NCBI GenBank assembly: GCA_963778545.1 | Contig: CAVZUW010000007.1 | Location: forward strand, 8,942-72,941 | Length of the DNA stretch: 64,000 bases | Source of the DNA: an uncultured Actinomycetes bacterium | GTDB taxonomy: Bacteria > Actinomycetota > UBA4738 > HRBIN12 | Direction: 5' to 3' | In this document: piece by piece, positions 2,076-44,066 of the stretch | Layout of the letters: every line of letters begins with the position of its first letter | Position numbering within the stretch: the stretch's first letter is position 1 | Made by a program: the position numbers and the translations under genes | The notes under the pieces: generated by a model | Databases searched by the model: none | Told to the model about the DNA's origin: nothing | Seen by the model: the letters and a program-made list of their open reading frames with translations, nothing else

Positions 2076-2146
2076 CCCCGCAGGGTCATCAGGGGTTCCT
2101 GCAACAGGTAAAGGGGCGGCTGTGTGCGCATTACCGGAGGGGTTTA

Positions 2147-3418: not shown

Positions 3419-3502
3419 TTTTTGCTCTCGATTCGAGCTGGCCCTAGGAAAAGCAAGCCGCCGCTCGAGGTCGAATTGTCGGGATGAGCGGAAATTCTAG
3501 GA

Positions 3503-3907: not shown

Positions 3908-3934
3908 TAAAACCGAGATGTCGCTGGCGGGAAC

Positions 3935-6083: not shown

Positions 6084-6771
6084 GCGGGGAGGAGGCGCGA
6101 GGTGCAAGGAGGACGAGACCATGGTCACGACGGGGAGCCGCCCGGCCCCGAGCGAGGCCGTTCGCGAGGCCGTCACGATGGCCCTGTACGTGGGCGTCGT
6201 CCTTGCGGCGGAGTTCGTCGCGGTCGAGGAGCACGCGGCGTCGACGAGCCCTCGACGGTGGCCGTGATCTGGGGCATCGGCGTTGGCCTCGCCCTCGCCC
6301 ACGTGTTCGCGTTCAACCTCGCCGCCCGGCTGTTCGCCGGTGGACGCATGACCCCCGGGTACCCGTAGGGCGGTCTGGGCGCAGCTCGCGACCGCCGCGG
6401 CCGTCGCCTTCGTCGTAACCGTCCCGTTCTTCTTCCTGTCGCTCGGCCCCGGCGCTGGACGCGTGTCCGGGTTCCTGCTCGCCGCGCTTGATCGGGGTCA
6501 CCGCGTACGTCGGCCTCCCGGGCCGCGGCGCGGCCGGCTCCGGTCGCTGGTCGACGGCCTGATCGCCCTCGCGGTCGCGATGGCGGTCGTGTCGGTGAAG
6601 GTCGGCCTGCGGCGCATTGACGTTCGTTGCCCCGCGAGCATCGCTCGAAGGGATCGCGCTATGATCCGGCCGAGCGGAGGCGTGGTCGGCACTGGAGCCA
6701 GGGGCCTCATTGAGCGACGCGGCAAGCCACAGAGCTCGCCCGACCCCGGTCCGCGTCCTTCCTGGCACGGC

Positions 6772-9480
<2,709 letters not shown>

Positions 9481-28479: not shown

Positions 28480-28809
28480 CTAGCGCGGACGGATCTCGAC
28501 GACGCCGTCGGTGACGCGGGTCTCGTACACGGGCACGGGTTCGGTCGCCGGTCCGCGCATCACCTTCCCCTGCGCGAGGTCGAACGTGCTGCCGTGCAGG
28601 GGGCACTGCACGGTCCGGAGCGAGCCCCCGAACCGCACCGGCCCCTTGTGCAGCGGCGCCCCCTGATGCGAGCAGCGGTTGCCGATCGCGAACAGCTCGT
28701 CACCGTCGCGCACCAGGAGCACGTCGGCGCCGTGCGCGTCGACCCGTATCGGCTTCCGCTCGGGGAGGTCCTCCAGGAGCCCGATCGGGATCCAGCCGTC
28801 GTCGCTCAC
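28480..28809 (-). CDS. Rieske [2Fe-2S] domain (separate small ferredoxin from GTG 28809, or the C-terminal domain of the upstream regulator)
   Basis: VSDDGWIPIGLLEDLPERKPIRVDAHGADVLLVRDGDELFAIGNRCSHQGAPL...VQCPLHGSTFDL carries the CxH...CxxH Rieske ligands. It is in the same frame as the TPR region, with no intervening stop. Confidence 0.7.
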   Translation of the reverse strand: MSDDGWIPIGLLEDLPERKPIRVDAHGADVLLVRDGDELFAIGNRCSHQGAPLHKGPVRFGGSLRTVQCPLHGSTFDLAQGKVMRGPATEPVPVYETRVTDGVVEIRPR

Positions 28810-31800
28810 GGGCGGGTCCCCCGGGCGGTCCCGTCGAGCGGGGGAGACGGCCCCGAGCGCGGCGAAGATCTCCTCGGCGCGCCGGTCGTGGTCACGGGGT
28901 TCCGGGGCGCCGAGCCCGGAGCGGCAGCGGCTCGCGCCGAGCAGCGCGATCCCGGTCTCGAGCTGGTGGCCGTACCGGGTCCATCCCTCGACCGCCTGCT
29001 CGTACAGATCGGCCGCGGCCTCGAGGTTCCCGAGCGTCTCCTCGAGCGCGGCTTTGGCCGAGAGCAGCGACAGGTCGTGCCGCTGCGCGGTGACCCTCGC
29101 CCCGTCGATGAGCCGCCGGGCGAGCGGCACGCTCTCGGTCGCTGCGCAGACCCGGACGAGGTCCGCGAGGAAGTTCTCGCGGTACCAAGCCAACGAGACC
29201 TCCGCCTCACGCTCGAGCTCCTCGACGATCCGGATCGCTTCCTGCCCACGACCCTCGCGGACCGCGACGAGCGCGGCGGCCACCTCGGCCGGGACCAGGA
29301 CCTGCGCGTCGCGGATGTGTGCCGACCGAACCATCGATTCCGACGCCGCATCGGCGGCCTCACCGTGCCGGCCGCGCCACAGGAGGACCTGCGCGAGCCA
29401 GGGCTGCGCGAGCCCGGCCGCGTAGTCGCCGCCTGCGTCCCTCGATCGCCGGAGGACGTCGTCCGCGACCTGGAGGAGCTCGTCCCACGCCCCGACGTCG
29501 AAGAGCGGCCCGAGGCTGAGCGCGTCGAACCACAGGCCCATGTCCAGGAGGCCGCGACGCTCGGCGAGATCTCCGCCCTCGCGAACGGTCTCGAGCGCGA
29601 CGACCGGTCCCTCGGTCGCCCATTCCACCTCGGCGCGGACGAGCAGGGCGAGCGCGTGCTCCCGCGAGCTGCCGTGGCTCTCCGCGACGCCGAGCGCCCG
29701 CCGCAGATCGTGGAGGCCGCCGGCGTCCCCCAGGAAGCATCGGGCGATCCCCCGGTAGCTGAGCGCTCGCGACTCGAGCCATCCGACCTCGAGCTTGGTC
29801 GAAAGCTCGAGGGAGCGGTCGCACCATTCGATCGCCTCCGTGAACGACCCGGAGACGATCCGGGCCACCGCCACGAAGGCGAAGCAGGTCGCGAGGTCGA
29901 CGCCGGGGGGTTCGGACTCCAGGATCGATACCGCCTCGGCGAGGCGCTCGCGGCTCTCTGCGAGCGCGCCGCGTTCCCACAGGACGTTCGCGAGCTTGGT
30001 GAGGCCGGCTCCCTCGCCGACGCGGTCGCCGATCGCGCGGAACGCGGAGATCGCCTCGCGATAGGTCCCCTCGGCCTCCTCGTAGCGACCCGCGTCCTTG
30101 ACCGCCTCCGCCTTGAAGTAGAGCGCGCTCGCGCGCTCCGGATGATCCGAGGGCAGGAGGGCCAGGACCTCGTCGAAACACACCGTCGCGCGCGAGATGT
30201 CCAGGGTCATCGCGTTCTCGCCCGCCATCATCAGGGCCCGGCGCGTGGACACCCCGAGCGCGTCGACGGCCTCGCTGCCGGCCGCGCGACTGAGCTCGAG
30301 CGCCTGCCCGTAGTGGTGGGCGAGCAGCTCCGCGCGGTCGGACAAGCGCTCGGCGGCCATGCGCTCGATCCACTGGGCTGTTGCCACGTGCTTGTCCACA
30401 CGGGCGAGCCGGGGGATCTGACCGTAGGCGACGTCGCGGATCAACGCATGCGCGAAGGCGTACTCGGTATCCCCGTGCATCGAAGAGACGCGGACGGGCC
30501 GAACGAGCTCGCGATGGGCAAGCTCGTGGAGCCCGGCGCGGACGGTCTCGAGGTCGGTCGCGCCGACCGCCGCGACCGCCGAGGGCCAGAACACCTTCCC
30601 GATCACCGACGCGTCCTGCACGAGCGACTTCTGCTCGGCGGCCAGCGTGTCGAGCCGCGCCGCGATGATCGCCTGCAGGCTCTCGGGCGCGTTGCTCGAC
30701 AGGGTCGCGGCCTGGCCGAGCGCCGGCGGGGTCCGACCGTTCGTCGAGCATCCGCGCGAACTCCTCCGCGAACAGCGGGTTGCCCCCGGCCCGCTCGGCG
30801 ATCAGCTCGCGGACGTCGGCCCCGGTGCCGGGAGCGAGGACGTTGTCGAGGAGCAGGAGGGTCTCCGCGTCGCTCAGGGGCGTGAGCGAGACCATGACCG
30901 AGTTGCGCATCCCGCCGCCCCACCGCGGATCGCGTTGCAGCATCTCGGGTCTCGCGGTGCACACGATCAGCATGGGGAAGCCCGTCGACCACTCGAGCAC
31001 GTGCTCGACGAACTCGACCATCGCCGGTTGCGCCCAGTGCAGATCCTCGATCGCGATCACGAGGGGGCGGATGGACGCGATCGCCTCGAGGAAGCGGCGC
31101 CAGGCGCTGAACGACTCCGTCTGCTCGACGGCGTCCGACTGCGGGTCGGCCAGGCCGATGAGCGGCGCGAGACGTGCCCGGAGCCACTCCTGCTCGGCGG
31201 CGTCCTCGACGAGGCCCTCGACGGAGGCGGAGAGCTTGGCGTGTGCGGTGGGGGCGTCGTCCGACTCGAGGATGCCCGCCTGCGCCTTCACGATCTGCCC
31301 GAGCGCCCAGTACGTGACGCCCTCGCCGTAGGGGAGGCAGCGCCCCTGCCGCCATGCCGCCACCAGGTCGGGCTGATCGTCGAGGTGCGAGAAGAGCTCG
31401 CCGATCATCCGGCTCTTGCCGACGCCCGGCTCGCCGAGCAGCGTCACGAGCTGGACGGACGGTTCGCGCGCGGCTCGCGCGAACGTGTGCTTCAGGAGCT
31501 CGAGCTCGTCCTGCCGCCCCACGAACGGGGTGGACGGGCGGTGATGGAGCTCGGCGCCGAACCGGCTGTGCGCGGCCTTCGCGACCCAGACGGGGAGCGC
31601 CTCGGCCTTGCCCTTGACCTGCACCGGGTCGAGCGGCTCGTAGTCGAAGAGGTCGCGTGTGAGCCGGTGCGTGCCCTCGCCCACCAGGATCCCGCCGATC
31701 GGGGCCACCCCCTGCAGCCGGGAAGCGGTGTTCACGACGTCCCCGATCGCGATGCCCTGCGCGGATGGCTCCGTGCCGACCGAGACGACGGCGACGCCCG

Positions 31801-32212
31801 TCTCGATCCCGATCCGCACGGCGAGCGGGAGGTCGTGGTTGGTCTCGTTGAGCTCCTCGATCACGGGGGGGATGCGGAGGGCGCTGAAGACCGCTCGCTG
31901 CGCGTCGTCCTCGTGCGCGACCGGGGCGCCGAACACGGCCATCACCGCGTCGCCGATGAACTTCTCGACGGTGCCGCCGAACCGTTCGATCTCGCGCCGG
32001 ACCCGAGCGTGATACGTCGCGAGCGTGTCCTGGACGTCCTCGGGATCGGCGAGATCGAAGCGCGACGTGAACTCGACGAGGTCGCAGAACAGGATCGTGA
32101 CGACCTTGCGTTCCTCGCGCGTGCGGCCGTCGGAGTCCAGCGCGTTGCCGCAGGCCGCACAGTAGTGCGCGGCCTGCGGATTGCGATGACCGCAGGTCCG
32201 ACAGACCGTCAC
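28810..32212 (-). CDS. class III adenylate/guanylate cyclase - AAA/STAND ATPase - TPR multidomain regulator (one frame change near ~30715)
   Basis: - ORF 29360..32212 N-terminus: zinc-ribbon CRTCGHRNPQAAHYCAACG
- Cyclase domain: VTILFCDLVEFTS...FIGDAVMAVFGAP...GDVVNTASRLQ
- P-loop: LLGEPGVGKSR
- The frame then changes into ORF 28480..30621: ...LQAIIAARLDTL / QDASVIGKVFW..., followed by long TPR-like repeats. Confidence 0.8.
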
Positions 32213-32321
32213 GGCCGAAGTGTAGACCGTGCCCCGCTAGGCACCGGGCAGCGTCGCTCGCCGACCTTGACCCGGTTCGCGGTGGGGCGTAGGTTCGTTC
32301 GGCCCGAGAAGGAGGGCTCGC

Positions 32322-32543
32322 ATGGCCAGGATCGCGGATTTCCTCGAGAAGCTGACGTCGGACGAGGACTTCGAGGAGGAGTTCGGCCAGAGTGACGAGA
32401 GTGCCGAGAGGGTCATGAACAGGTTCGGGCTGGACAAAGACCAAAAGGACCTGATCCTGAACGGCACGGCCAAGCAGATCCGGAAGGCGGTCTTCGAGGA
32501 GCTCGGCAAGGACGCCCTCGTCTTCCGGGTCAAGATGCACTAG
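32322..32543 (+). CDS. candidate split-borosin precursor peptide (SonA-like, N-terminal helical recognition domain plus short C-terminal core)
   Basis: 73 aa: MARIADFLEKLTSDEDFEEEFGQSDESAERVMNRFGLDKDQKDLILNGTAKQIRKAVFEELGKDALVFRVKMH. A strong SD (GAAGGAGG, 32308-32316) precedes the ATG. The stop lies 5 nt before the methyltransferase start. As I recall it, the layout resembles the Shewanella SonA precursor (..FF.QL..D..L.E.Y..NPEAVM...GL.). Confidence 0.55.
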   Translation: MARIADFLEKLTSDEDFEEEFGQSDESAERVMNRFGLDKDQKDLILNGTAKQIRKAVFEELGKDALVFRVKMH

Positions 32544-32548
32544 CCCGG

Positions 32549-33358
32549 GTGGTGGCGAAGCCCGATCCGCGGGCAGGCTCGCTAACGATCGTCGGTGCGG
32601 GGATCCGGCCCGGGTTCCACACCACGCGCGAGGCGGTCGCCCGGATCAAGGACGCCGAGAAGGTCCTGTACCTGCTCGCCGAGGTCACGCCGGTCCGATG
32701 GCTCGAGGAGCTCAACCCCTCGGCCGAGTCGCTCGAGCACGCCTATCGCCCCGGTCGGCGATACGCCGAGGTCTACGAGGAGATCGTCGGCACGATCGTC
32801 CGCCATGTCCGCGAAGGCCTCGACGTCTGCGTGGTCTTCTACGGGCATCCCGGTGTGTTCGACCGTACGTCGTACGACGCCTTGGCGCGCGCTCGGGCCG
32901 AGGGGTTCGCGGCGAGGATCCTGCCGGGCATCACGGCGGAGGATTGCCTCTACGTCGACCTCGAGCTCGACCCTGGGAAGACCGGGTGTCAGAGCTACGA
33001 CGCCACGGACTTCCTCGTCCGGCGGAGGCGGCCCGACGTTACGGTCCCGCTGATCCTGTGGCAGGTGGGCATCGTCGGGGGGTCGGAGACGACCGGAGAG
33101 GTCCGGCGGTCCGGCCTGCAGGTGCTCGCCGAACGGCTCGAGGAGCTGTACGGCCCCGAGCACGAGGCGATCGTCTACGAGGCGACCCCGTTTCCCGTCG
33201 GCCGCCCGTTCATCGAACCGTGCGGGGTACGCCACCTCGCCGACTCGGGGATCACGGGCCTCTCGACGTTGTACGTGCCCCCGAAGGGCTCGGCGCCCCG
33301 CGATCGCGACCTCATGGCCCGTCTCGAGATGGTCCCGACGCCCGGGAGCGAGGGCTAG
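32549..33358 (+). CDS. TP_methylase-fold SAM-dependent methyltransferase, SonM/OphMA (borosin alpha-N-methyltransferase)-like
   Basis: 269 aa: GSLTIVGAGIRPG...VLYLLAEVTPVRWLEELNPSAESL...AYRPGRRYAEVYEEIV...VCVVFYGHPGVFDRTSYDALARARAEGF.ARILPGITAEDCLYVDLELDPGKTGCQSYDATDFL...LILWQVGIVG...EAIVYEA...LSTLYVPP. There are no cobalamin, siroheme or diphthamide genes nearby. Confidence 0.7.
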   Translation: MVAKPDPRAGSLTIVGAGIRPGFHTTREAVARIKDAEKVLYLLAEVTPVRWLEELNPSAESLEHAYRPGRRYAEVYEEIVGTIVRHVREGLDVCVVFYGHPGVFDRTSYDALARARAEGFAARILPGITAEDCLYVDLELDPGKTGCQSYDATDFLVRRRRPDVTVPLILWQVGIVGGSETTGEVRRSGLQVLAERLEELYGPEHEAIVYEATPFPVGRPFIEPCGVRHLADSGITGLSTLYVPPKGSAPRDRDLMARLEMVPTPGSEG

Positions 33359-33456
33359 TCCCGACGTCCCGCTCGGCGGAGGCCGAGCACGAGCGCATCG
33401 CGATCCCCCTTCCGCATCGTCTTTCGTGAGGGCACAATCGGGGGCGGGGTGAGGGC

Positions 33457-35553
33457 ATGACGACGTGGACCGCTCGCAGGCTGGCCTGGTCCGTCGGGAT
33501 CGGCTCGATCGCGCTGATGATCGCCGCGCTCGTGCTGATGTTCGTCGATCGCGGGAGCGATCTGCCGGACAACGTCGGCATCTGGAGCGCCGCCGACGTC
33601 GTCGACGTGCTCGTGAACCTCGGCGTGCCGATCCTCGGCATCGTGATCGTGAACAAGCGTCCGCGGAACGCGATCGGCTGGATCTTCATCGTTGCGGGGG
33701 CCGCGCTCGCGCTCGCGGGCTTCGGGCAGGCGTACGCGCTCCACGTCCTCGTCGCCGATCCAGGGACCCTGCCGGCCGGGCGGGCGCTGGCCTGGCTCAG
33801 CAACGTCTTGTGGCCGATCCCGATCGTCGGTCTCACCCTGTTGTTCCTCCTGTTCCCGACCGGACACCTCCCGTCTCCGCGATGGCGTCCCGTCGTCTGG
33901 CTCGTCGGGGTCATCCTCGCCCTGCTCACGATCGCCTCCTTGATCCTCGCGACGGCGGGTTGGTCGGACCCGTTCGAGGGCATCAACGTGGGCGCCGGAT
34001 CCGTCGGCGACGTCGCCCGAGTCGCGATCGTGATCGCCGTGTTCGGGGAGATCGTCGCGTTGGGGTTGGCGGTCGCATCGCTCGTCGTGCGCTACCGGCG
34101 CTCCGTCGGCGTCGAACGGCTCCAGCTGAAGTGGTTCGTCTCGGCCGCCGCCGTCGCCGCCGTGGCGTTCAGCGTCGGCTTCTTCTTCGACTCCGCCGTC
34201 GTCTCGGCGATCGTCTCGGTCTCGCTGCTGTTCCTGTATGTCGCGATCGGGATCGCGATGGTGAAGCACAACCTCTACGACATCGACGTCATCATCAACA
34301 AGACGATCACCTACGGGGCGCTCGCGGCGTTCATCACCGCGATCTACGTGATCGTGGTGGTCGTGATCGGCGCGGTCATCGGGGTCACCGAGGGGGTCTC
34401 GCTGGTCGCGACCGCGGTCGTCGCGGTGGCGTTCCAGCCGATCCGGCGGCGAGCGCAACAGATCGCCAACCGGCTCGTCTACGGGGAGCGCGCGACGCCC
34501 TACGAGGTCCTGTCCCGGTTCTCCGAGCACGTCGGCGAGACCTATTCCGGCGAGGACATCCTCGTCCGGATGGCGCGGCTCCTCGCGGAGGGGACCGGCG
34601 CCACGTCGGCCGTCGTCTGGCTGCGGGTGGGCGACGAGGTCCGCCCGGCCGCGGTGTGGCCGACGAACGGAGGGATGGCCACCGCGATCCCTCTCGCACG
34701 TGGCGAGCCGCCCGAGGTCGAGGGCGTGACCGCGGCGGTGCCCGTCCGCCATCAACGAGAGCTCCTCGGTCTGCTCACCGTCACGAAGCCGCCCAACGAG
34801 CCCCTGTCCTCCGTCGAGGACAAGCTCGTGGCCGACCTGGCCGCGCAGGCGGGGCTCGTGCTCGCGAACTCGAAGCTGATCGAGGATCTCCGCGCCTCAC
34901 GCCAGCGGCTGGTCGCGGCACAGGACGAGGAGCGACGACGCCTCGAGCGGAACCTGCACGACGGGGCGCAGCAGCAGCTCGTCGCCTTGGCCGTTCGGTT
35001 ACGGCTCGCCCGGGCGACCGCGTCGAAGGACGTCGTGGAGGCGGAGCGGATGCTCGAGCAGCTCGAGGGCGATGTGACCGACGCGCTCGAGAACCTCCGC
35101 GAGCTCGCACGTGGCGTCTACCCGCCGCTCCTGGCCGACCAGGGACTGACGGCCGCGATCGACGCGCAGTCGCGACGCTCGCCCATCCCGGTGCGCGTCG
35201 AGGCGGACGGGATCGATCGCTACCCGCAGGAGGTGGAGACGGCCGTCTACTTCTGCACGCTCGAGGCCCTGCAGAACGCCGCGAAGTACGCGGAGGCCGG
35301 CGAGATCACCGTGCGTCTGGTCGAGGACGACGACGAGCTCGTGCTCTCGGTCCGCGACGACGGCCGAGGGTTCGACCCCGCCGCCACCCCGCTCGGCGCC
35401 GGCCTCCAGAACATGGCGGATCGCCTGGCCGCGCTCGGCGGCACGTTGATCGTCCGGTCCCGCGCCGGCGGCGGCACGACGATCGAGGGGCGCATCCCCG
35501 TCAGCCGCCACCTGGTCGCGTCGGAGACTGCAGCCGGCGAGACGCCGGCGTAG
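33457..35553 (+). CDS. multi-TM sensor histidine kinase (GAF-like region, HisKA_3 plus HATPase_c), no cognate response regulator adjacent
   Basis: 698 aa with about 9 hydrophobic helices. HisKA_3 box LVAAQDEERRRLERNLHDGAQQQLVAL, then ATP-binding TLEALQNAAKYA...DDGRGFD...GAGLQNMADRLAALGG. Confidence 0.85.
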   Translation: MTTWTARRLAWSVGIGSIALMIAALVLMFVDRGSDLPDNVGIWSAADVVDVLVNLGVPILGIVIVNKRPRNAIGWIFIVAGAALALAGFGQAYALHVLVADPGTLPAGRALAWLSNVLWPIPIVGLTLLFLLFPTGHLPSPRWRPVVWLVGVILALLTIASLILATAGWSDPFEGINVGAGSVGDVARVAIVIAVFGEIVALGLAVASLVVRYRRSVGVERLQLKWFVSAAAVAAVAFSVGFFFDSAVVSAIVSVSLLFLYVAIGIAMVKHNLYDIDVIINKTITYGALAAFITAIYVIVVVVIGAVIGVTEGVSLVATAVVAVAFQPIRRRAQQIANRLVYGERATPYEVLSRFSEHVGETYSGEDILVRMARLLAEGTGATSAVVWLRVGDEVRPAAVWPTNGGMATAIPLARGEPPEVEGVTAAVPVRHQRELLGLLTVTKPPNEPLSSVEDKLVADLAAQAGLVLANSKLIEDLRASRQRLVAAQDEERRRLERNLHDGAQQQLVALAVRLRLARATASKDVVEAERMLEQLEGDVTDALENLRELARGVYPPLLADQGLTAAIDAQSRRSPIPVRVEADGIDRYPQEVETAVYFCTLEALQNAAKYAEAGEITVRLVEDDDELVLSVRDDGRGFDPAATPLGAGLQNMADRLAALGGTLIVRSRAGGGTTIEGRIPVSRHLVASETAAGETPA

Positions 35554-35914: not shown

Positions 35915-36273
35915 GACGGGCAAGCACGCCGCTCTTTTCGGCGGCGGCTGGTCTTCACGCTCAACGGCCGAAGAGCCGCCTCCACAGAGAAGGCCGCTTC
36001 TGGCCCCCGAGGGCTTCGTCTTCCCGGCTTCGTTGTTCAGCGATCCGGTCGAGGTCGTGCTGCGTGTGGTCTTCGGGTGGCGGGCCAGAGGGCCAAAAGA
36101 GCGACATGTGTTGAGGGCGGGGGTACTCGGGGTTCGTGCCGCGATCCGTACTCACGCCCGCCATTATGCGCTGTGCGAGCGGCGCACGGGGAGCCGGCCG
36201 TAGGCCGCACCGTGAGATCCACCTCGACCCGCGTGTGTCATGCTCATGCTGACATCTCCAAGAGGGGACCAGG

Positions 36274-36387
36274 ATGTTCGTGTCGATGCTGGGGTATGTC
36301 GCGGGGACGCTCATCGCGGTCGGCCTCGTCGTCATGGCCGTGGTGCTGCTCGGGTATTTCGTCTACTTCTTCTTCATCAAGAAGTAG
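36274..36387 (+). CDS. 37-aa hydrophobic micro-peptide
   Basis: Not in the track (<60 aa). ATG 36274 follows AGAGGGGA. It reads MFVSMLGYVAGTLIAVGLVVMAVVLLGYFVYFFFIKK, with TAG at 36385-36387. Confidence 0.3.
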   Translation: MFVSMLGYVAGTLIAVGLVVMAVVLLGYFVYFFFIKK

Positions 36388-36427
36388 TTCATGACCCCGC
36401 CTTCCCAGTGTCCGTGCGGGGATAACC

Positions 36428-36718
36428 CTAAGCGGGCGAAACGGTTGTCGCGTTCCGAAGCCTCGACATCCTTGAAAGGGCGTCGGCAACGATCGGACCC
36501 CTCCGCGGAACTCCGTGTGAGCTCGTGATGTCTCGCAGCGGAACCCGGACGAGCACCCCGGAGCGCGTCAGCACCATGTACGTCTGCGCTTCGTCGTCGA
36601 AGTAGGCGAGCCGGCCCACGACGGTCCGAGCGTATCCACCGGGCGACTCGACCTCGAACGAGCGCTCGAGGGATCGTGACTCGGTTGAGGTGCGGGCCGT
36701 ATCCATGAGGGTGGTCAC
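36428..36718 (-). CDS. small hypothetical protein, tandem paralogue 2 (N-terminal VTTLMDTAR)
   Basis: GTG 36718 overlaps the upstream gene's stop (GTGA): VTTLMDTARTSTESRSLERSFEVESPGGYARTVVGRLAYFDDEAQTYMVLTRSGVLVRVPLRDI... Confidence 0.4.
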   Translation of the reverse strand: MTTLMDTARTSTESRSLERSFEVESPGGYARTVVGRLAYFDDEAQTYMVLTRSGVLVRVPLRDITSSHGVPRRGPIVADALSRMSRLRNATTVSPA

Positions 36719-36915
36719 GCTGCTTCGCTCCAGAGGGACTGCCCACGACCCATCGCCAATCGATCCCACTGCGTGCTGCGGGATCGGTCCTGGAGCGAGC
36801 GCTCAGAGGATGGGATCTCGGAACCGTCGTCCCACGAGGGATCCAACGGGGACACCGGCCTGACCGGCGATCTCTCTGGGGCTTGGATGCGGACCGTATC
36901 CGTGAGGGTGGTCAT
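36715..36915 (-). CDS. small hypothetical protein, tandem paralogue 1 (N-terminal MTTLTDTVR)
   Basis: ATG 36915 follows GAGGAGG: MTTLTDTVRIQAPERSPVRPVSPLDPSWDDGSEIPSSERSLQ... About 30 nt around both starts are near-identical (ccgtatccatgagggtggtcac vs ccgtatccgtgagggtggtcat). Confidence 0.4.
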   Translation of the reverse strand: MTTLTDTVRIQAPERSPVRPVSPLDPSWDDGSEIPSSERSLQDRSRSTQWDRLAMGRGQSLWSEAA

Positions 36916-37231
36916 CGTGCCTCCTCGGTTCGAGGGGCTGCCCACGGCCTCTTCGCAAACGGTCCCGATGGATGGGTGCTTCCTAGCCATTCTCTCACTT
37001 CGGGATAGGGACACGACGGCCACTGGGCGCCGCACGGCGCGATGCGGCACGGTTGCGGCATGCGGGGTTCATCCGTGCCGCGAGGGCGTTCGGACTCGTC
37101 TGCGGACGCAGAGATCAGACCAGCTGGTCCGGCTCACTTCCGCGAAGGCGCAAGCTCGACTGATGGGTGACCGAACGTGAGCGTCAGTCGGTCGGTGAGC
37201 CGCACGACACGGCATGAGGCGCTATCGATTC

Positions 37232-37594
37232 TCAGTCGCCTCCTCGTTCTGCCCAAGTTTGGGCGTCAGCGAGCGTCTCGAACATTGGTATCTGGTCCGC
37301 CATGCCGACGACGTCGAATGCCCGCCGGGGCTGGGACCCCGAGGGAACTACGACCCCGAAGATCTGCCCGTGCTCCTTCAGTTGCCGCGCGAGGACGAAG
37401 AGTAGGTTCATTCCTGCGCTATCGGCGTAGGAGACGCTCGTCAAGTCGACGATCAGTGCGCGGTCCTCATTGGTCGCTCCTTGCGCGATCTCGTCCCTGA
37501 GGTCTTCCGCGTTTGACATGTCGATCTCGCCCGATACCTCGGCGAGCACGACCCCATGACTCCGTCCGAGGGAAAGGGATGCGAGTTCCCTCAT
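37232..37594 (-). CDS. STAS-domain anti-sigma-factor antagonist (SpoIIAA/RsbV-like)
   Basis: 120 aa: VVLAEVSGEIDMSNAEDLRDEI...LIVDLTSVSYADSAGMNLL (conserved phospho-serine context DSAG). Its start overlaps the upstream gene's stop (ATGA). Confidence 0.8.
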   Translation of the reverse strand: MRELASLSLGRSHGVVLAEVSGEIDMSNAEDLRDEIAQGATNEDRALIVDLTSVSYADSAGMNLLFVLARQLKEHGQIFGVVVPSGSQPRRAFDVVGMADQIPMFETLADAQTWAERGGD

Positions 37595-39190
37595 CGCGAC
37601 GGCAGCTTCCGGTACATCGTCACCGTCGTACCGCCATCAGATGTCTCGTGTACGACTGAGTCCATCAGAGCGCGACATGAGCCTACTACCCCTTCCGCGA
37701 CCGGAGCTACGTTTCCGCCAATGGCCGCCGTCTCGTACGACGACCTTGAGCGTGTTCCCTTCACGACTGGCGAGTAGATCCATCCAGCCCCCCTGCGGTC
37801 CGTAAGCATGCTCAATCGAGTTCGCAACTGCTTCTCCAGCCGCTGTGACCACGTCGTCACGGAGCCGCCCTCCCACCTCTAGGTCTGAGAGCCATCGTTC
37901 AAGGCTCCTGCGAACGATCACGAGTGCTGCTGTGTCGGCTGCCATCTGAAGATGGACGCTGGTAGACGGTGGTTCCAACTCGACAAGAAGGAGCGCGATG
38001 TCGTCCGTCGCCTCGGAGCCATCGAGAAGGGAACCGATCAGCGAGTCGAGGGCGGCAGCCGGGCTCGGCGCTGCTCCGACAAGGTAAGACTCGCCCCGCA
38101 GACGTGCGAGGCCCGCGGACAGCGATTCGTCGCGGCGCTCGATAAGGCCGTCCGTATACAGGAGGAGAGCCTGGGCACGAGCCAGCGACACCACATGGGT
38201 CCGAAATCTATGGCGTCGACTGGTTCCAAGCGGCGGATCAGCCCTGCCGTCGTCCGCGAAGAACGGGTCTCCGGACTTGAGGACTAGCGGCGGGACATGA
38301 CCGGCGGAAACGAACCGGAACTCGGAAAACTTCGGATCGACGATCCCAAAGAGCAGGGTGACCATGCCGGCGACGTCGAGGGCATCCATCAACCGGTCTA
38401 GGCGAGCCACGACGTCGGCTGGGTCAGCCTCCTCGATCGCACACGCCCGAAGCGCGTTTCTGAGTCGACCCATGGCAGCAGCCGCCTCAACGCCGTGGCC
38501 GGCTACATCGCCCATCGCAAGTGCGACGGCACCCGACCGCAACGCAAGCACGTCGTACCAGTCGCCACCTATGCCCGCGGCGGGCTGGTACTTCGAGGTA
38601 AGGCGCAGACCAGGTACGCGAGGCATGGTCACCGGAAGGAATGTCTGCTGGAGCGCCTCCGTCAATCGCCGCTCGTGCTCGTAGAGCCGCACGCTCAAGC
38701 CAAGAGCGACCCGCTCGGCCACCATCTGCAGAAGCTGCACGTCGGGCTCAGTAAACCTTCGATACGTAAGCGAACCAACATGCAACACTCCGAGTACCTG
38801 GCCGCGAACGAGCAGCGGCACTCCCAGCAACGAGATGATCCCCTTCTCACGAAGGATGGGGTTCATCACGTTTTGGTGGTCGACCCGCTCGATCACCACT
38901 GGTGCGCGCTCAAATGCGATCTTTCCGGCGAACCCCTGTCCTACGGGGATCCTGACTCCCGACTCGACTTCTTCTTCAATCCCCTTGGCAGCAGTAGCGA
39001 CGAGTTCGTTTGTGCGCTCATCCAGCAGGAGTACGGCTGCGGTATCCGCCCCGAGAACTTCACGGACGCGAATCAAGAGCTCATCCAGCAAGTCCTCCGG
39101 TGACAGATGGGCAAGGGCGACGTCGGAGACGTGGAGCAGCCGACGGAGTTGTTCCGCCGAATCCGCGATCCCTAGATTCGTCGACTGCAT
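37591..39190 (-). CDS. GAF - PP2C(SpoIIE) phosphatase - HATPase_c (RsbW-like kinase) fusion, one frame change near ~37690
   Basis: ATG 39190 follows AGGAGG.
- GAF: VLGADTAAVLLLDERTNELV...GFAGKI...ISLLGVPLLVRGQVLGVLHVGS
- PP2C: GGDWYDVL...AMGDVAGHGVEAAAAMG...LLYTDGLIE
- Kinase-like tail: AAGEAVANSIEHAY... completed in ORF 37591..37860. Confidence 0.8.
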
Positions 39191-39357
39191 TCGTCCTCCT
39201 GGCTGACGGCCGGGAGTGACGATCCTGGCTGTCGACCCGGTCCACCCATTTCGTCCCCTCCGGAGAGGCTTCTGACACCTGACAACGGCGGCTCGTGAAG
39301 GCACCCGTTTTCGTTCAGGCTGGGTGACCGGACGTGTGGGTCGAGTGAGGTAGGAGA

Positions 39358-39762
39358 GTGTCGAACGAGGTTCAAGCCGAGACCCCTCGGGTATCACATC
39401 TCTCGTGGAGAAACATGCAACCGAAACGAGCCAGCGTGGGCTTGGAACCTGAGAGCCCTTCCCAGGCCCGGATGCACAAGCGGCTCGGCGCCCGGTTGCC
39501 CCTCGGTGGAGTCCTGGGGGCGATCGCTGGTGCCATGGTCGGAGCCCTGGTCGGACTCCTCTTCTTCGATCGCTCAGCAGCCATCCTGGCGTCGGTCCTC
39601 GCATTGGCGGTCTTTGGTTTGGGCGTAGGCATGCTGATTGCCGGCTACTCGAGCCTTGAATCGCCTGATCCTGGTGCTGAGCCCTCTGACACGGCGAGGC
39701 CCGTCTCAGATCGCCCGGAGGCTGTGAGAGAAGAACACCCTGATCCTCCGGTCGCCAACTAG
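39358..39762 (+). CDS. glycine-zipper membrane protein (start uncertain)
   Basis: GGVLGAIAGAMVGALVGLLFF...ASVLALAVFGLGVGMLIAGY. Internal ATGs (MQPKRAS, MHKRLG) are possible true starts. Confidence 0.45.
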   Translation: MSNEVQAETPRVSHLSWRNMQPKRASVGLEPESPSQARMHKRLGARLPLGGVLGAIAGAMVGALVGLLFFDRSAAILASVLALAVFGLGVGMLIAGYSSLESPDPGAEPSDTARPVSDRPEAVREEHPDPPVAN

Positions 39763-39975
39763 ATGGTCGAGGACGAAACCGTTGGAAGCTGCGGCCGTCA
39801 GTCGAGCTCAGCCTGACGCCGAGGAGCTCGGCGTCGTTGACCACGCGAGGGAGCTTCCGGCGCTTCACTCTGAAGTATCCGGCAGTGGCCCGCGTCGGCA
39901 CGTCATGCGCGGATGGGCGGTCGACCCCTCAGACGAATAGGCCAGTCAGCTTTGGGAAAGAGAGGCAAAGAGCGC

Positions 39976-40001
39976 AGTCGATCCGTGAAGTCGATCCGTG
40001 A
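39976..40001 (+). promoter_or_regulatory. perfect 13-bp tandem duplication (agtcgatccgtga x2) immediately upstream of the SD of the histone-like gene
   Basis: 39976-39988 and 39989-40001 are identical. AGGAGG follows at 40003-40008 and the ATG at 40015. Confidence 0.3.
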
Positions 40002-40014
40002 CAGGAGGACGAAA

Positions 40015-40668
40015 ATGCCGGAACGGAAGAGCGTGACCAACAAGGTGGTTGGGGCGGGAAAGAAAGTGCTTGCGACCGACGCAGCGCAAGGCGTGATCGG
40101 TGCCGTCGCCGACAAGATGGAGGAGATCGCTATCGACAAGGCCGATGATGCTGCCGAAATCGTCAAAGAGAAGGCCGCAAAGGCTGGCGGCCGCAGGCCC
40201 AGCTCGAGGAGGTCAGTCCCTCGGAAGGCCGGTGCCAGGAAGACCGGTGCCCGCAAGACCACCGCTTCGAAGGCCACCACTCGGAAAGCCGGTGCCAGGA
40301 AGACCGGTGCCCGCAAGACCACTGCTCGGAAGTCCACCACGCGGAAGGCCGGTGCTCGAAAGTCCACTACGCGGAAGGCCGGTGCTCGGAAGACCGGTGC
40401 TCGGAAGACCGGTGCTCGGAAGACCGGTGCTCGGAAGACCGGTGCTCGGAAGACCGGTGCTCGGAAGACCGGTGCTCGGAAGAGTGGTGCTCCGAGGACC
40501 GCTGCTCGCAAGGCCGGTGCTCGGAAGTCCACCACTCGGAAGACCGGTGCTCGGAAGTCCACCACTCGGAAGACCGGTGCCAGGAAGGCCGGTGCCAGGA
40601 AGACAAGCGCCAGCAAGACAAGCGCCAGGACGGGTTCCAGGAAGCCAAGGGCCCGGAAGCGTTCGTAG
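40015..40668 (+). CDS. histone-H1-like / basic repeat (TGARK)n protein
   Basis: ATG 40015 of ORF 39913..40668: MPERKSVTNKVVGAGKKVLATDAAQGVIGAVADKMEE... The tail carries more than 20 pentapeptide repeats: KAGARKTGARKTTARKSTTRKAGARK... Confidence 0.65.
   Translation: MPERKSVTNKVVGAGKKVLATDAAQGVIGAVADKMEEIAIDKADDAAEIVKEKAAKAGGRRPSSRRSVPRKAGARKTGARKTTASKATTRKAGARKTGARKTTARKSTTRKAGARKSTTRKAGARKTGARKTGARKTGARKTGARKTGARKTGARKSGAPRTAARKAGARKSTTRKTGARKSTTRKTGARKAGARKTSASKTSARTGSRKPRARKRS
40190..40650 (+). repeat. compound 15-nt-periodic tandem repeat (coding)
   Basis: Six perfect copies of ggtgctcggaagacc run from 40381 to 40470. Degenerate 15-, 30- and 45-nt units flank them (e.g. ggtgccaggaagaccggtgcccgcaagaccac occurs twice). 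Confidence 0.9.
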
Positions 40669-40670
40669 TC

Positions 40671-41264
40671 ATGACCGGGTACGTCAAGTCCCTTTGGGTC
40701 TCCATCCAGGGGGATCCGGTATTTATGCAACGGGTGAACGGGTGGCTCACGATCTTCTGGATCGCGATGATTCCGATCTCGATCGCAACGGGATGGATCA
40801 ACAGCGTCGCGTACGTGGCTTCGCTCTCGCTGTGGGCTCTCGTGTCAGGTCACTGGTCGGCCTGGCAGGCTGCCCGGGTGGAGGTCGCCCAGAAGAAGCA
40901 AGAGGAGCGGAGGGCGGCCGAGGACATGGCTGGCGAGATCGTGGAGCGGGTCGTGGAAGAGACCACCGTGGGTGGAGAAGCAGGGGTAGGCGGGGAGCAT
41001 CACGACTGCCAGCCGCCGAACGTGCAGTTTGCGAAGGACGAACTCCCGAAGCCGTGGAGGTGTCCGGACGGTCTGGGGAGATATCTGAGAGGCCGGAGGG
41101 TGACACCCGAGGGCTGGGCTGAGTGGATTCGGCTTGGCGAGCGAGGTGACGTAGCGAGCGCCGAACGCCCTCGGACCGTCGGCGTCCTCCGACCGGCTGT
41201 GCCTCTACGCGGGCAGGGATGGCGAAGGGATGCTTGTGCCAGGCCCATCCTTGGTTCCGCCTAG
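40671..41264 (+). CDS. membrane protein (3' extent uncertain)
   Basis: Its start overlaps the upstream stop. The N-terminal 70 aa hold two TM helices (WLTIFWIAMIPISIATGWINSVAYVASLSLWALVSGHW). The C-terminal half is low-complexity and runs into repeat R1a. Confidence 0.4.
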   Translation: MTGYVKSLWVSIQGDPVFMQRVNGWLTIFWIAMIPISIATGWINSVAYVASLSLWALVSGHWSAWQAARVEVAQKKQEERRAAEDMAGEIVERVVEETTVGGEAGVGGEHHDCQPPNVQFAKDELPKPWRCPDGLGRYLRGRRVTPEGWAEWIRLGERGDVASAERPRTVGVLRPAVPLRGQGWRRDACARPILGSA

Positions 41265-41364
41265 GACCGGGTACATGAAGTACGGCTGGTCCCGACGTCC
41301 GTCCACTCGGTTGGTCGGACCCAGCTAGGGAGCCCCGTGGCGGCACGCCGTTGCGGGGCTCCCT
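41246..41364 (+). repeat. R1a: ~120-nt structured intergenic repeat ending in a long GC hairpin
   Basis: catccttggttccgcctaggaccgggtacatgaagtacggctggtcccgacgtccgtccactcggttggtcggacccagctagggagccccgtggcggcacgccgttgcggggctccc. Hairpin gggagccccg...cggggctccc. The second copy is at 43430..43548. Confidence 0.85.
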
Positions 41365-41433
41365 CCTGTGCGCCGTCGTGGAACCAACTCGAACGAGCTC
41401 TGCGCGATCCGGTGGATACCCGCGATCAGGCTT

Positions 41434-41583
41434 CTAGGGCTCGTGTGATGCATCGGAGAGACCTTCGTCCGCGTGCGCATCCATCAGATGCTTCGAAAGT
41501 TCCTCCTGCGTTGGGAACACCTGCCCGCAGATGTGGCAGGTACCGGTCTCGCGGTCACCCTGCTGTGTTCCTCTCTCACTCAT
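41434..41583 (-). CDS. 49-aa classical C2H2 zinc-finger micro-protein
   Basis: Not in the track (<60 aa). MSERGTQQGDRETGTCHICGQVFPTQEELSKHLMDAHADEGLSDASHEP has C-x2-C-x12-H-x4-H spacing. Repeat R1a lies on its 3' side. Confidence 0.5.
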   Translation of the reverse strand: MSERGTQQGDRETGTCHICGQVFPTQEELSKHLMDAHADEGLSDASHEP

Positions 41584-41611
41584 CGGGTCCCCTTGCATAG
41601 ATAGACGGGCG

Positions 41612-42070
41612 CTACTTCGTTGCGGCCTGCTGCCTCATCAGAACTTCTTTGCGCGCCTTCATGGACTCGCCTAGCTGGGTGAGTTCGTCCTGGTCGAAGA
41701 CCTGCTTGGCCTGCTTGAACATCTCGCCCTCCTCTTCCTCGATGTGGTGTTCGAGGTTCTCCTTCATGACCGTGAACTTCGCGCCCCACTTCTCGTCGTC
41801 GTACGCGACGCCTTCGATCTCGGCCATGACGGTATCCACGACGTGGTGCTCCTCGTAGCCCTCGAGGGCGATCTCTTTGGTCTTCGGGTGCTCCTTGAGC
41901 GCCGGGTAGAAGATCTCTTCCTCGATCGCCTCATGGATCACCAGTTCCTTCTTGACCCTCGTGAACAGCTCCTCACGGGTCTTGACCCCCCGTTCGGTCG
42001 TCGACTCGAGCTCTGCGAGCATCCTCTTGACCTTCCGGTGGTCTTCCTTGAGCAGACTCATCGCGTCCAT
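41612..42070 (-). CDS. hemerythrin (HHE cation-binding) domain protein
   Basis: ATG 42070: MDAMSLLKEDHRKVKRMLAEL...LVIHEAIEEEIFYPAL...EEHHVVDTVMAEI...LEHHIEEEEGEMF. Confidence 0.8.
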   Translation of the reverse strand: MDAMSLLKEDHRKVKRMLAELESTTERGVKTREELFTRVKKELVIHEAIEEEIFYPALKEHPKTKEIALEGYEEHHVVDTVMAEIEGVAYDDEKWGAKFTVMKENLEHHIEEEEGEMFKQAKQVFDQDELTQLGESMKARKEVLMRQQAATK

Positions 42071-42101
42071 CGTCTTCTCCTCGCTCCAGGGGCGGCCTCG
42101 A

Positions 42102-42878
42102 TCAGGCCTCCCAGCCCGGTGATCTACCTGGTGATTCCTGTTCAACCTCCGGGATCCCTACGACATCGCTGCTGCGTTCGTGAGGGGTTTCCGGGGCTGC
42201 GCTTCGCCTGATCTCCGACGCTTTCGCATCTGCGCGCCGACTGACACGCTCCCAATATCCACGCGCGGTCTGGATACCGCCCCCACCGAAGGCGACGATC
42301 GCTACACCAACGATGATTGCCAGCAGCGCGTAGAAGAGACCGTTGACGATCTCCGGTGCGATCTGCAGCTGATTCAGGGCCGCGAAGACCCCGATGACGA
42401 GTATGGCCATTCCTGCCACACGGGCGATCCACTCTCCTCCTGAGACCTCTCCGAGCGCGGCAGCCAACAGGTCAGTCACGACCCTGGCCAGCGCCGCGAC
42501 GATCACCAGGATGACAACGGCTGCGAAGAGATTGGGCAGGTACGCGATGATGCCCTGGATCAGATCGCTCACTGGGTTGGGACCGAACACACCGAAGGCG
42601 AGCTGCAGCGAGATCAGGAATACTGCCCAGAAGGCAACGACGGACAAGATGTCGGAGGCATCGAACTTGGACCGGTCGAGCGCGGTCTTGAGCGCCCCAC
42701 GCTCCACCCATCGGTCGAAGCCGATCCGCTCGAGGAGCCCATCCACCACCTTCGCAACTAGCTTCGCTACGAAGTAGCCGATGATGAGGATGGCCAGGAA
42801 TCCAAGCAGTTTCGGAATGAATGTCGCGATGCGCTCCCAGGCCTCGGTCAATCCGCTCTCGATGTCGATGGCAAGCAT
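42102..42878 (-). CDS. conserved-TM-helix-repeat (mechanosensitive-channel-like) membrane protein
   Basis: ATG 42878 follows GGAGAGGAG: MLAIDIESGLTEAWERIATFIPKLLGFLAILIIGYFVAKLVAKVV...LIQGIIAYLPNLFAAVVILVIVAALARVV... Confidence 0.55.
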   Translation of the reverse strand: MLAIDIESGLTEAWERIATFIPKLLGFLAILIIGYFVAKLVAKVVDGLLERIGFDRWVERGALKTALDRSKFDASDILSVVAFWAVFLISLQLAFGVFGPNPVSDLIQGIIAYLPNLFAAVVILVIVAALARVVTDLLAAALGEVSGGEWIARVAGMAILVIGVFAALNQLQIAPEIVNGLFYALLAIIVGVAIVAFGGGGIQTARGYWERVSRRADAKASEIRRSAAPETPHERSSDVVGIPEVEQESPGRSPGWEA

Positions 42879-43196
42879 GGGTGAGCTTCTCCTCTCCTCT
42901 TCGCCGGTCGTGAAATGCACAAGCTGACTACCCAACCCGCGGCCGGGCAATCGAGATCGGTCATGCATCGTGGAAAAGATCCACGTTGGATGTCGCATCA
43001 CACACACGATGGGCAACGCCGTTGATCGCTTCGAGCTGAGTCTTCACGGGCTGGTATGCCAGGTCCGCTTGTGTGGACTTGGTTTTTCTGCTGGAGGTAG
43101 AGGGTAGAAACGAGGTCTTGCTACAAGGAGGACGTCCGCCTCGCCCTCGCAGGCGGGCGTCCTCCGCTTTGTCAGCTAGCCGGACAGAAGGAGCCG

Positions 43197-43409
43197 TTGA
43201 TGAGCGTCGAACTGCAACTCACCACGGGCGATGAAGAATGGACGTTCAATCTGGCCGAGCCGGTCGTTCCGAGGCCTGGTGACGCCTTGACTATCGACGA
43301 CCCGAACGGAGACCCGCGTGACTTCCGGGTGGTGAGCAGGAGGATCACCCTCACTGAGGGCGATACGGTGGGGTCAGTACTGGTCGGTATCGACCTGGAG
43401 CCAGCTTAA
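43197..43409 (+). CDS. small hypothetical protein
   Basis: 70 aa, with AAGGAG SD upstream. Repeat R1b follows it. Confidence 0.45.
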   Translation: MMSVELQLTTGDEEWTFNLAEPVVPRPGDALTIDDPNGDPRDFRVVSRRITLTEGDTVGSVLVGIDLEPA

Positions 43410-43429
43410 GGACGAATTCCCGCGCCGCA

Positions 43430-43548
43430 CATCCTTGGTTCCGCCTGGAACGGGTACACAGAAGTACGGCTGGTCCCGATGCCCGTCCACTCGGTTGGTC
43501 GGAGCCAGCCAGGAGCCTCGTGGCGGCACGCCGTGGCGGGGCTCCCCT
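43430..43548 (+). repeat. R1b: second copy of the ~120-nt structured repeat
   Basis: catccttggttccgcctggaacgggtacacagaagtacggctggtcccgatgcccgtccactcggttggtcggagccagccaggagcctcgtggcggcacgccgtggcggggctcccc. It has the same orientation as R1a and differs mostly by point substitutions. Confidence 0.85.
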
Positions 43549-43599
43549 TGGAGACGGGCGGGCGGTTTCGTTATCAGCTGCGCGGGACATAGTCCGGTC

Positions 43600-43929
43600 A
43601 TGACCTCACGCGAAGAACGGATGTCCCGGAACGAGGTCGCGTCCCGGGAGCTTAACGAGGAGATCGAGGAGGCCTACCAAGGTGAGCCACCGGCCAATCG
43701 GCTCGACATCGTCTGTGAGTGCGCTTTGAAGATGTGCGATCGCTCCATCGACATCACGATGGCCGAATACCGGATGGTGCGGAGTGATCTGCGGCAGTTC
43801 GCCATCGTACCGGAGCATCTCGCCGCCGATATCGAGCGGATCGTTGACGAGAACGACCGTTTCGCCGTCGTAGCTAAGCGTGAGGGAACGCCGGCGGACG
43901 TGGCGCGGGACGAGAATCCGCCAGGCTGA
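43600..43929 (+). CDS. hypothetical protein
   Basis: ATG 43600 in ORF 43435..43929: [29 protein letters not shown]...[23 protein letters not shown]... Confidence 0.4.
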
Positions 43930-43993
43930 ATGGCTGGGCCATGCGGAGTCCGCGCCGCACGGCGAGCCGGTGGTGTGAACGTGCGCCGTTGCG

Positions 43994-44066
43994 TAGTCCC
44001 AACGGGGTTCGAACCCGTGTCTCCACCTTGAGAGGGTGGTGTCCTAGGCCACTAGACGATGGGACC
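43994..44066 (-). tRNA. tRNA-Glu (anticodon CUC)
   Basis: Minus strand: GGTCCCA TC GTCT AGTGGCCTA GGAC A CCACC CTCTCAA GGTGG AGAC ACGGG TTCGAAC CCCGT TGGGACT A. The cloverleaf folds by hand. G1 pairs with U72 as a wobble. Confidence 0.8.

Follow-up and report, generated by a model that had tools for sequence, protein, structure and literature searches.

The gene pair in the window

The window is a 64,000-nt stretch of contig CAVZUW010000007.1 (positions 8,942 to 72,941 of the forward strand) from an uncultured bacterium of the Actinomycetes. It carries a small open reading frame (ORF) directly upstream of a gene for a methyltransferase of the TP_methylase fold. We propose that the two genes constitute a type IV split borosin pair, meaning a functional methyltransferase together with the precursor of a ribosomally made, post-translationally modified peptide (RiPP), in an uncultured high-G+C member of the Actinomycetota. 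We consider this reading likely; our confidence was held back mainly because an arginine that is canonical in the active site of borosin enzymes is missing from its usual place. Type IV split borosins comprise a stand-alone methyltransferase of about 260 aa and a precursor of about 50-100 aa that bears a borosin binding domain (BBD) (PMC8429565). The type was defined on SonA/SonM and SspA/SspM, for which crystal structures were reported and backbone N-methylation was detected by liquid chromatography-tandem mass spectrometry (PMC8429565).

A preliminary description of this DNA, made from the letters alone, reported a 73-aa ORF preceded by a strong Shine-Dalgarno site and ending 5 nt ahead of a 269-aa enzyme. 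The translation that it quoted for the small ORF is exact, GAAGGAGGG lies at the spacing given in Table 1, the enzyme begins at a GTG, and every enzyme motif that it quoted is present. Precursor and enzyme are probably translationally coupled. The G+C content at third codon positions (GC3) is 0.93 in the precursor ORF, where that at second positions (GC2) is 0.27, and the GC3 of the enzyme ORF is 0.91; whole-window G+C is 67%. The codon-position G+C pattern of both ORFs is like that of real genes. A 98-aa antisense ORF with a GC3 of 0.85 overlaps the entire precursor gene; it is a typical shadow ORF of high-G+C DNA and not a gene.

The window holds one pair only, with no second copy of either precursor or enzyme. 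A scan of 32100..33600 for promoters and terminators returned none, using a sigma-70 consensus that is of little use for this organism. Rfam and tRNA scans returned two tRNAs only, both unrelated to the pair.

Table 1. Coordinates of the pair and of other features in the window (position 1 is the first letter of the window).
Feature	Position	Strand	Details
Shine-Dalgarno site GAAGGAGGG	32308..32316	+	5 nt before precursor ATG; direct sequence reading
Precursor ORF	32322..32543	+	ATG at 32322, stop TAG 32541..32543, 73 aa (MARIADFLEKL...ALVFRVKMH)
Precursor residues 1-64, leader, BBD-like five-helix bundle	32322..32513	+	Profile, AlphaFold2, Foldseek
Precursor residues 65-73 (ALVFRVKMH) and stop, putative core/substrate tail	32514..32543	+	Low model confidence, clade motif
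Borosin-type alpha-N-methyltransferase gene	32549..33358	+	GTG start, 269 aa, single TP_methylase-fold domain
Zn-ribbon, class III nucleotide cyclase, AAA_16 (STAND-type ATPase), TPR gene	28813..32212	-	Divergent from the pair
Frameshift in cyclase gene	~30719..30729
Antisense ORF	32237..32533	-	98 aa
Cyclase TPR end read into Rieske ferredoxin ORF	28480..28815	-	In frame, no stop; ferredoxin GTG at 28809
GAF-HisKA_3 histidine kinase	33457..35553
Segment of lower G+C	36000..44000		G+C 62-63%
GAF-SpoIIE-HATPase_c_2 phosphatase	37637..39901
Hemerythrin	41612..42145
Mechanosensitive-channel TM-helix-domain protein	42102..43016
tRNA-Glu	43993..44066
Left end of lower G+C	1..4000		G+C 54-58%
Fatty-acid desaturase	2147..3418	-
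Major facilitator superfamily transporter fragment	3503..4411	-

The enzyme belongs to the borosin methyltransferases

Pfam assigned the enzyme to PF00590 alone (3e-18), the generic TP_methylase family. A sequence search of the PDB was more specific, with full-length matches to OphMA (1.4e-52), dbOphMA (2.9e-51), SonM (1.8e-47) and MroMA (1e-42); the best tetrapyrrole methylase reached 1.3e-3 over the N-terminal half only. Expressed as bit scores, borosin methyltransferases scored 166-183 over the full length, compared to about 22 for CobA-type enzymes. A profile built from 48 members of the clade described below matched SonM at 7e-67 and OphMA at about 2e-61, compared to 6e-4 for CbiF. The AlphaFold2 model of the enzyme (predicted local distance difference test score, pLDDT, 81.7) retrieved borosin methyltransferases for all of the top 50 Foldseek matches, at about 1e-28. 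We also compared the enzyme by eye with the published names of the BorosinMT-rule motifs, YGHP and DCLFAD. Both regions are present (FYGHPGVF, residues 97-104; EDCLYVDL, residues 131-138) and conserved across the clade. The alignment to OphMA and SonM proposed in the preliminary description scored far above that to any tetrapyrrole methylase.

These matches place the enzyme in the borosin alpha-N-methyltransferase subfamily. An ordinary tetrapyrrole methylase (CobA/CysG/CbiF) or YabN-type methylase beside an unrelated or spurious small ORF might be suspected from the generic Pfam assignment, from a best NCBIfam match to YabN (3e-14) and from the labels 'YabN' or 'tetrapyrrole methylase' that several databases attach to homologues. 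YabN is the closest outgroup used in the literature for borosin methyltransferases. The YabN match amounts to 53 bits against a cut-off of 525, however, and the NCBIfam Cob and Cys models gave 12-24 bits against cut-offs of 163-603. No tetrapyrrole pathway context was found either: the preliminary description remarked on the lack of a cobalamin, siroheme or diphthamide neighborhood, and neither such genes nor cob, hem or cys genes occur within about 7 kb of the pair. The small ORF, moreover, is homologous to SonA and always adjacent to the enzyme, as shown below. Clustering with CobA, CysG or Dph5, the outcome that the preliminary description named as fatal to its proposal, is contradicted by the profile, PDB sequence and Foldseek matches, all of which favor borosin enzymes. 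We therefore regard this alternative as effectively refuted.

The small ORF encodes a SonA-like precursor

When the single precursor sequence was searched against the PDB, the best seven matches were all SonA, although weak (E 0.27-0.67). A family profile (alignment A1) was made from 12 homologous small ORFs gathered beside enzyme homologues. It matched SonA at 6.4e-10, with profile positions 1-51 aligned to SonA residues 1-51, and the next match was a gallate dioxygenase at 0.012 over about 40 residues. The Pfam LigA model, which is also the database annotation of SonA, matched eight of the 12 family members.

An AlphaFold2 model of the precursor, built with a four-sequence alignment, had an overall pLDDT of 84 and about 90 in the helical leader. 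It comprises five helices (residues 4-13, 15-22, 25-35, 39-47 and 50-64), and confidence drops from residue 65 (block means of 60 and 45) to below 50 at residues 69-73. The top 26 Foldseek matches of this model were all SonA chains (probability 0.90-1.00), with a root mean square deviation of about 1.6 A over about 52 residues and target-normalized TM scores of 0.61-0.81. Profile, model, Foldseek and LigA matches all identify the leader as the BBD that characterizes type IV precursors. The preliminary description had assigned three helices to SonA-type binding domains; the published SonA BBD is a five-helix bundle (PMC8429565), as is the leader modeled here.

Other models also matched the precursor family. 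The IniB N-terminal domain was detected in six of the 12 members (best 1.6e-6), and among RiPP leader models of the NHLP clan, TIGR04509 matched five of the 12, with further matches to NF038399 and TIGR03793. These matches suggest a distant relationship of the borosin binding domain to the leader folds of LigA and NHLP proteins.

Precursor and enzyme stay together across an uncultured clade

Genome scans and contig look-ups yielded 13 clade loci whose enzymes are 59-100% identical to that of the window (the window itself, L001, L002, L008 and L010-L018). The clade is larger than this set, with more than 120 clusters at 90% identity whose members are at least 55% identical to the window enzyme. 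In all 13 loci, a BBD-type ORF of 70-88 aa ends 3-13 nt before the enzyme start, although in L008 and L013 it is broken by assembly frameshifts. Four distant loci (L004-L007, enzyme 43-47% identical) also have a small BBD-like ORF upstream. Because its homologues adjoin the enzyme in all 13 clade loci as well as in four distant ones, the small ORF is conserved beyond chance, which answers the question raised in the preliminary description of whether enzyme homologues elsewhere carry a similar ORF upstream. Homology of both partners and their constant adjacency likewise bear out its central proposal, namely that the gene for a SonA-like precursor immediately precedes that for a SonM/OphMA-like methyltransferase. 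The window pair has the layout of a discrete precursor within the range of about 50-100 aa beside a single-domain enzyme of about 250-270 aa to which no BBD is fused.

Variations on this layout were also observed. In L003, from a metagenome-assembled genome (MAG) of Methylocystis, a BBD-like N-terminus (MKLRDFFYALATS...) and a methyltransferase domain are joined in a single 387-aa ORF (5623..6786), resembling the published type 0, or N-terminally fused, borosins (bioRxiv 2024.01.09.574750). In L008, two tandem precursors with tails ..KKIVVFRVKMR and ..GKDVPVFRVKMG precede the methyltransferase (~5451..5990), and all three genes are frameshifted in the MAG.

The precursor tail is conserved

Precursors of the clade share a tail motif, a hydrophobic run followed by V/I-K-M/R-x-stop at the extreme C-terminus. 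Examples include ..GKDALVFRVKMH, ..GKDVMVIMVKMR and ..GKDVLVFRVKRG, as well as ..KKIVVFRVKMR, ..TQVYLIKMRP, ..VVIFMIKMK, ..TVYVIRVKRG, ..TVYVIKIKMK and ..ATVLFVLRIKK. The preliminary description regarded the putative core as more polar and basic than the hydrophobic cores of characterized borosins. Basic residues are indeed present, but the tail is not simply polar or basic, being a conserved hydrophobic run with basic interruptions. Published borosin cores range from hydrophobic to acidic.

In a low-confidence phmmer alignment, L66, V67 and F68 of the precursor stand opposite L63, V64 and I65 of SonA. The methylated residues of SonA are L63 and I65 (PMC10549244). As a positional hint, the likeliest methylation sites of the precursor would lie around L66 to F68.

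The canonical active-site arginine is replaced

To locate active-site residues, we mapped the enzyme onto SonM and OphMA sequences recovered from HMMER alignments. Residues Y58, R67, Y71 and Y93 of SonM correspond to Y66, R72, Y76 and Y98 of OphMA (PMC8429565, PMC6108569). The preliminary description proposed looking for this catalytic Tyr/Arg/Tyr set, and the result was mixed. Y66, Y76 and Y98 of the window enzyme align with the three active-site tyrosines, whereas the column of the essential arginine (SonM R67, OphMA R72), four residues before the second tyrosine, holds Y72, with arginines at 70 and 71 (YRPGRRYAEVY). Among 121 clade sequences, column 66 is Y in 120, column 70 is R in 118, column 76 is Y in all 121 and column 98 is Y in 120. 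Column 72 is variable (F 51, Y 37, H 23, R 8, N 1, Q 1). The bottom-lock residues F99 and W166 of SonM correspond to F104 and W171 here and are conserved across the clade. In the AlphaFold2 model of the enzyme, helix 72-88 starts at Y72, and R70 and R71 are in the preceding loop. Because these two arginines sit just before the helix, a relocated arginine (R70) that takes the place of the canonical one is plausible.

Several observations weigh against a functional borosin pair. F, Y or H occupies the canonical arginine column in 111 of the 121 clade enzymes. The wider family, sampled as 150 representatives of clusters at 50% identity, shows mostly the pattern Y-[KR]-x-R-Y-Y, and about 90% keep the arginine, leaving roughly a tenth of full-length catalytic domains without it. 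This replacement matters because mutants of the residue are inactive or strongly impaired: R72A and R72K of OphMA are inactive (PMC6108569), and R67A of SonM is inactive while R67K is about 100-fold less efficient (PMC8429565). R214A of SkoAM, described as an impaired mutant, has poor activity (bioRxiv 2024.01.09.574750). The low confidence of the tail-to-SonA alignment counts on the same side. So does the absence of conserved maturation genes, which leaves a released natural product unproven; no protease, transporter or exporter, or tailoring enzyme is conserved beside the pair in the clade loci. Finally, the divergent cyclase gene next to the pair lies in two frames in the window, as determined by tblastn with the intact 1133-aa orthologue of L010. 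The frameshift is probably an assembly indel, or else the gene is a pseudogene.

We considered whether the pair descends from borosins but no longer performs canonical backbone N-methylation. The enzyme might be much slower, might bind the small protein without catalysis, or might methylate a different atom or acceptor, and the pair might act as a protein-protein module, for example as a regulator of the cyclase. The arginine replacement and the mutant data would fit such a loss, as would the missing maturation and export genes and a tail conservation that is unusual for a RiPP core. However, the three tyrosines, the YGHP loop, F104 and W171 are almost invariant, which arguably indicates that S-adenosylmethionine (SAM)-dependent chemistry has been retained, and R70, in its loop ahead of helix 72-88, could supply the guanidinium group. 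In addition, eight peripheral clade members combine the canonical arginine with the same type of tail, suggesting continuity of function. Taken together, we judge a loss of the chemistry to be rather unlikely and favor a functional borosin methyltransferase with its precursor.

Substrate-assisted catalysis, in which a lysine or arginine of the tail would replace the enzyme arginine, was also considered. It is unsupported because L018/P0124 combines the canonical arginine with the same kind of tail.

The highest-scoring representatives at 50% identity, P0125-P0135, are proteins of 450-920 aa in which a methyltransferase-like stretch occurs twice. At least eight of these proteins have a second copy (in P0134 a first copy) that has lost the active-site arginine and most of the tyrosines. 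These proteins look like type IX-like duplicated enzymes in which one copy is degenerate.

A nucleotide cyclase gene accompanies the pair

The cyclase gene divergent from the pair has Pfam matches to Guanylate_cyc (7e-23), AAA_16 (2.8e-21) and TPR_12 (1e-17). In 12 of the 13 clade loci, a gene of this architecture (1105-1137 aa) adjoins the pair in divergent orientation, although the outer flanks of these loci otherwise bear no relation to one another. In the remaining locus, L013, a hydrolase-cyclase gene lies downstream instead, and the distant loci lack the cyclase-AAA-TPR gene. In the window, the TPR end of the cyclase reads in frame, without a stop, into a Rieske ferredoxin ORF, whose GTG lies inside a GTGA overlap; L010 has separate genes with an ATGA overlap. 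This read-through is likely due to another indel, in a run of G residues just upstream.

The best NCBIfam match of the cyclase was TIGR03903, a TOMM system kinase/cyclase fusion, at 5e-69. This match covers model positions 271-903 only, corresponding to the cyclase and ATPase, and its 233 bits fall short of the cut-off of 705.75; with no kinase domain, the protein is not a member of that family. Our literature search found no paper that joins borosins with adenylate cyclase, or NHLP or TOMM systems with a cyclase, and the cyclase is not discussed by Haft et al. 2010.

In two of the 13 loci, the methyltransferase gene is immediately followed by a convergent gene for a cyclic nucleotide monophosphate (cNMP)-binding protein of 129-143 aa (L012, 8716..9105; L015, 8828..9259, both on the minus strand). 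Its presence alongside the cyclase gives a hint of a circuit based on cyclic nucleotides around the pair.

Cyclases of this kind also raise the question of whether the module is a Pycsar-like anti-phage defense system, with the cyclase as sensor and the pair as an accessory. The cyclase domain matches PycC models of PADLOC (best 5.6e-16), the cNMP-binding protein of L015 matches the cNMP part of PycTIR effector models (1.6e-13), and the STAND-type AAA_16-TPR architecture would suit a sensor of this sort. The PADLOC matches are nevertheless confined to generic cyclase and cNMP-binding domains. Neither the methyltransferase nor the small ORF matches any PADLOC model, and no TIR, transmembrane or other effector domain was found, so the hallmarks of Pycsar, a pyrimidine cyclase and an effector in which a cNMP-binding domain is coupled to a TIR or transmembrane killing domain, are lacking. 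Furthermore, the cNMP-binding gene was seen in only two of the 13 loci examined, and the locus is syntenic chromosomal DNA with housekeeping neighbors (GluRS and GalT). We rejected this reading as very improbable and retained the borosin pair with an associated cyclase.

Beyond the cyclase gene lie the Rieske ferredoxin gene, a 101-aa ORF, GalT and GluRS. Downstream of the enzyme are a GAF-HisKA_3 histidine kinase and a LapA-domain protein. The histidine kinase and the housekeeping flank are common only to the closest relatives, L002 and L010.

Two further regions of the window differ in base composition. From 36000 to 44000, G+C is 62-63%, compared to about 70% upstream, and the segment ends at a tRNA-Glu. 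It encodes a GAF-SpoIIE-HATPase_c_2 phosphatase, a hemerythrin and a mechanosensitive-channel TM-helix-domain protein, and may be an acquired island. The first 4,000 nt (G+C 54-58%) carry a fatty-acid desaturase and a fragment of a major facilitator superfamily transporter.

Comparison with known borosins

SonA/SonM of Shewanella oneidensis MR-1, whose product is shewanellamide A, offers the closest parallel for the organization of the pair. Both systems have a stand-alone enzyme of about 260 aa (36% identity in a structural alignment) and a separate precursor of about 70 aa with a five-helix BBD, and the hydrophobic residues of the tail are equally far from the BBD. Neither cluster contains a protease, and a gene for a nucleotide-second-messenger synthase is adjacent in each; the son cluster has a GGDEF gene and lacks a protease (PMC10549244). 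The differences are that the precursor lies upstream of the enzyme here, that the R67 column holds Tyr72 with arginines at 70 and 71, and that the tail ends nine residues past the BBD and combines basic with hydrophobic residues (ALVFRVKMH compared to DSSYQSYLVISHGNGD). Next to the pair is a gene for a class III cyclase-AAA-TPR protein, where the son cluster has genes for a GGDEF protein and a cation efflux pump, and the pair comes from an uncultured actinobacterium.

SspA/SspM of Streptomyces sp. NRRL S-118 is likewise an actinobacterial type IV system, with a 263-aa enzyme and a precursor of about 75 aa (PMC8429565). SspM, however, has an arginine in the canonical position (..GKPRSASY.., from a translation of the published construct DNA), and the tail of SspA is different and longer. 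The fungal enzymes OphMA, dbOphMA and MroMA (types I-III) are the best matches of the catalytic domain (about 40% identity), with the same fold and tyrosines. In those proteins, binding domain and core are fused C-terminally to the enzyme, which acts autocatalytically in a homodimer, whereas the substrate is a separate protein here.

Genome mining has identified more than 1,600 and later 2,699 borosin methyltransferases, about 79% of them type IV (bioRxiv 2021.12.24.474128; 2024.01.09.574750). Type IV is therefore the commonest borosin type, and Actinomycetota MAGs are represented in the mined set (bioRxiv 2021.12.24.474128; 2024.01.09.574750). Among the RODEO dataset entries examined, precursors from Actinomycetota MAGs were present and the motifs of this clade were not among them. 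In the part of the published RODEO and sequence similarity network supplements that was examined, neither the leader and tail motifs of the clade nor Guanylate_cyc was found, which is a weak negative.

A GGDEF domain is encoded in 56% of split borosin clusters, and the enzymes of type X borosins are fusions of the form TPR-TM-GGDEF-methyltransferase (bioRxiv 2021.12.24.474128). Like type X and other GGDEF-linked borosins, the clade ties a borosin methyltransferase to a TPR-containing nucleotidyl cyclase. The partner here differs in being a separate, cytoplasmic Zn-ribbon/class III cyclase/STAND ATPase/TPR protein and not a diguanylate cyclase. The cyclase-STAND-TPR neighbor is an actinobacterial counterpart of the GGDEF pattern.

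Proposed mechanism and significance

Based on these comparisons, we propose that precursor residues 1 to about 64 fold as a five-helix BBD that docks onto the 269-aa SAM-dependent alpha-N-methyltransferase. The flexible tail ALVFRVKMH would then thread into the active site, where one or a few of its backbone amide nitrogens would be methylated, as expected by analogy with characterized borosins. Release of a short peptide would require a protease encoded elsewhere, as in Shewanella, because none is conserved beside the pair.

Synteny points to a link between the cyclase and the pair that is most likely regulatory or signaling in nature. The TPR module may sense the methylated tail, or the cyclase may govern the pair. 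A more far-reaching version holds that, across a widespread clade of uncultured Actinomycetota from soil, the pair would be an arm of a constant signaling module of three genes and not a natural-product cluster standing by itself. The TPR sensor of the cyclase would read the methylated tail, or a peptide released from that tail, as its ligand, peptide methylation would in this way be coupled to an output of cyclic AMP or cyclic GMP, and Arg70 would stand in for the canonical arginine in the active site. In some genomes, the output would also pass to the adjacent cNMP-binding protein. We offer this version tentatively and consider it more doubtful than probable. If true, split borosins, whose native function and recurrent link with GGDEF and TPR proteins lack an explanation, would gain a physiological role.

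Classification of the pair as type IV is unaffected by the arginine or cyclase features, and the pair is what borosin mining tools target. What is new here is an uncharacterized clade with a displaced arginine, a conserved tail and a fixed cyclase-STAND-TPR partner. Backbone N-methylation confers protease resistance and membrane permeability on ribosomal peptides and is hence of biotechnological interest. Split borosins, in which enzyme and substrate are separate, are the most engineerable form, and a natural variant of the active site can reveal an alternative build of its "top lock". By being strictly paired with a cyclase-STAND-TPR protein, the clade reinforces the pattern in which bacterial borosins are accompanied by enzymes of nucleotide second messengers, and it adds a set of environmentally abundant, uncharacterized actinobacterial borosins to the family.

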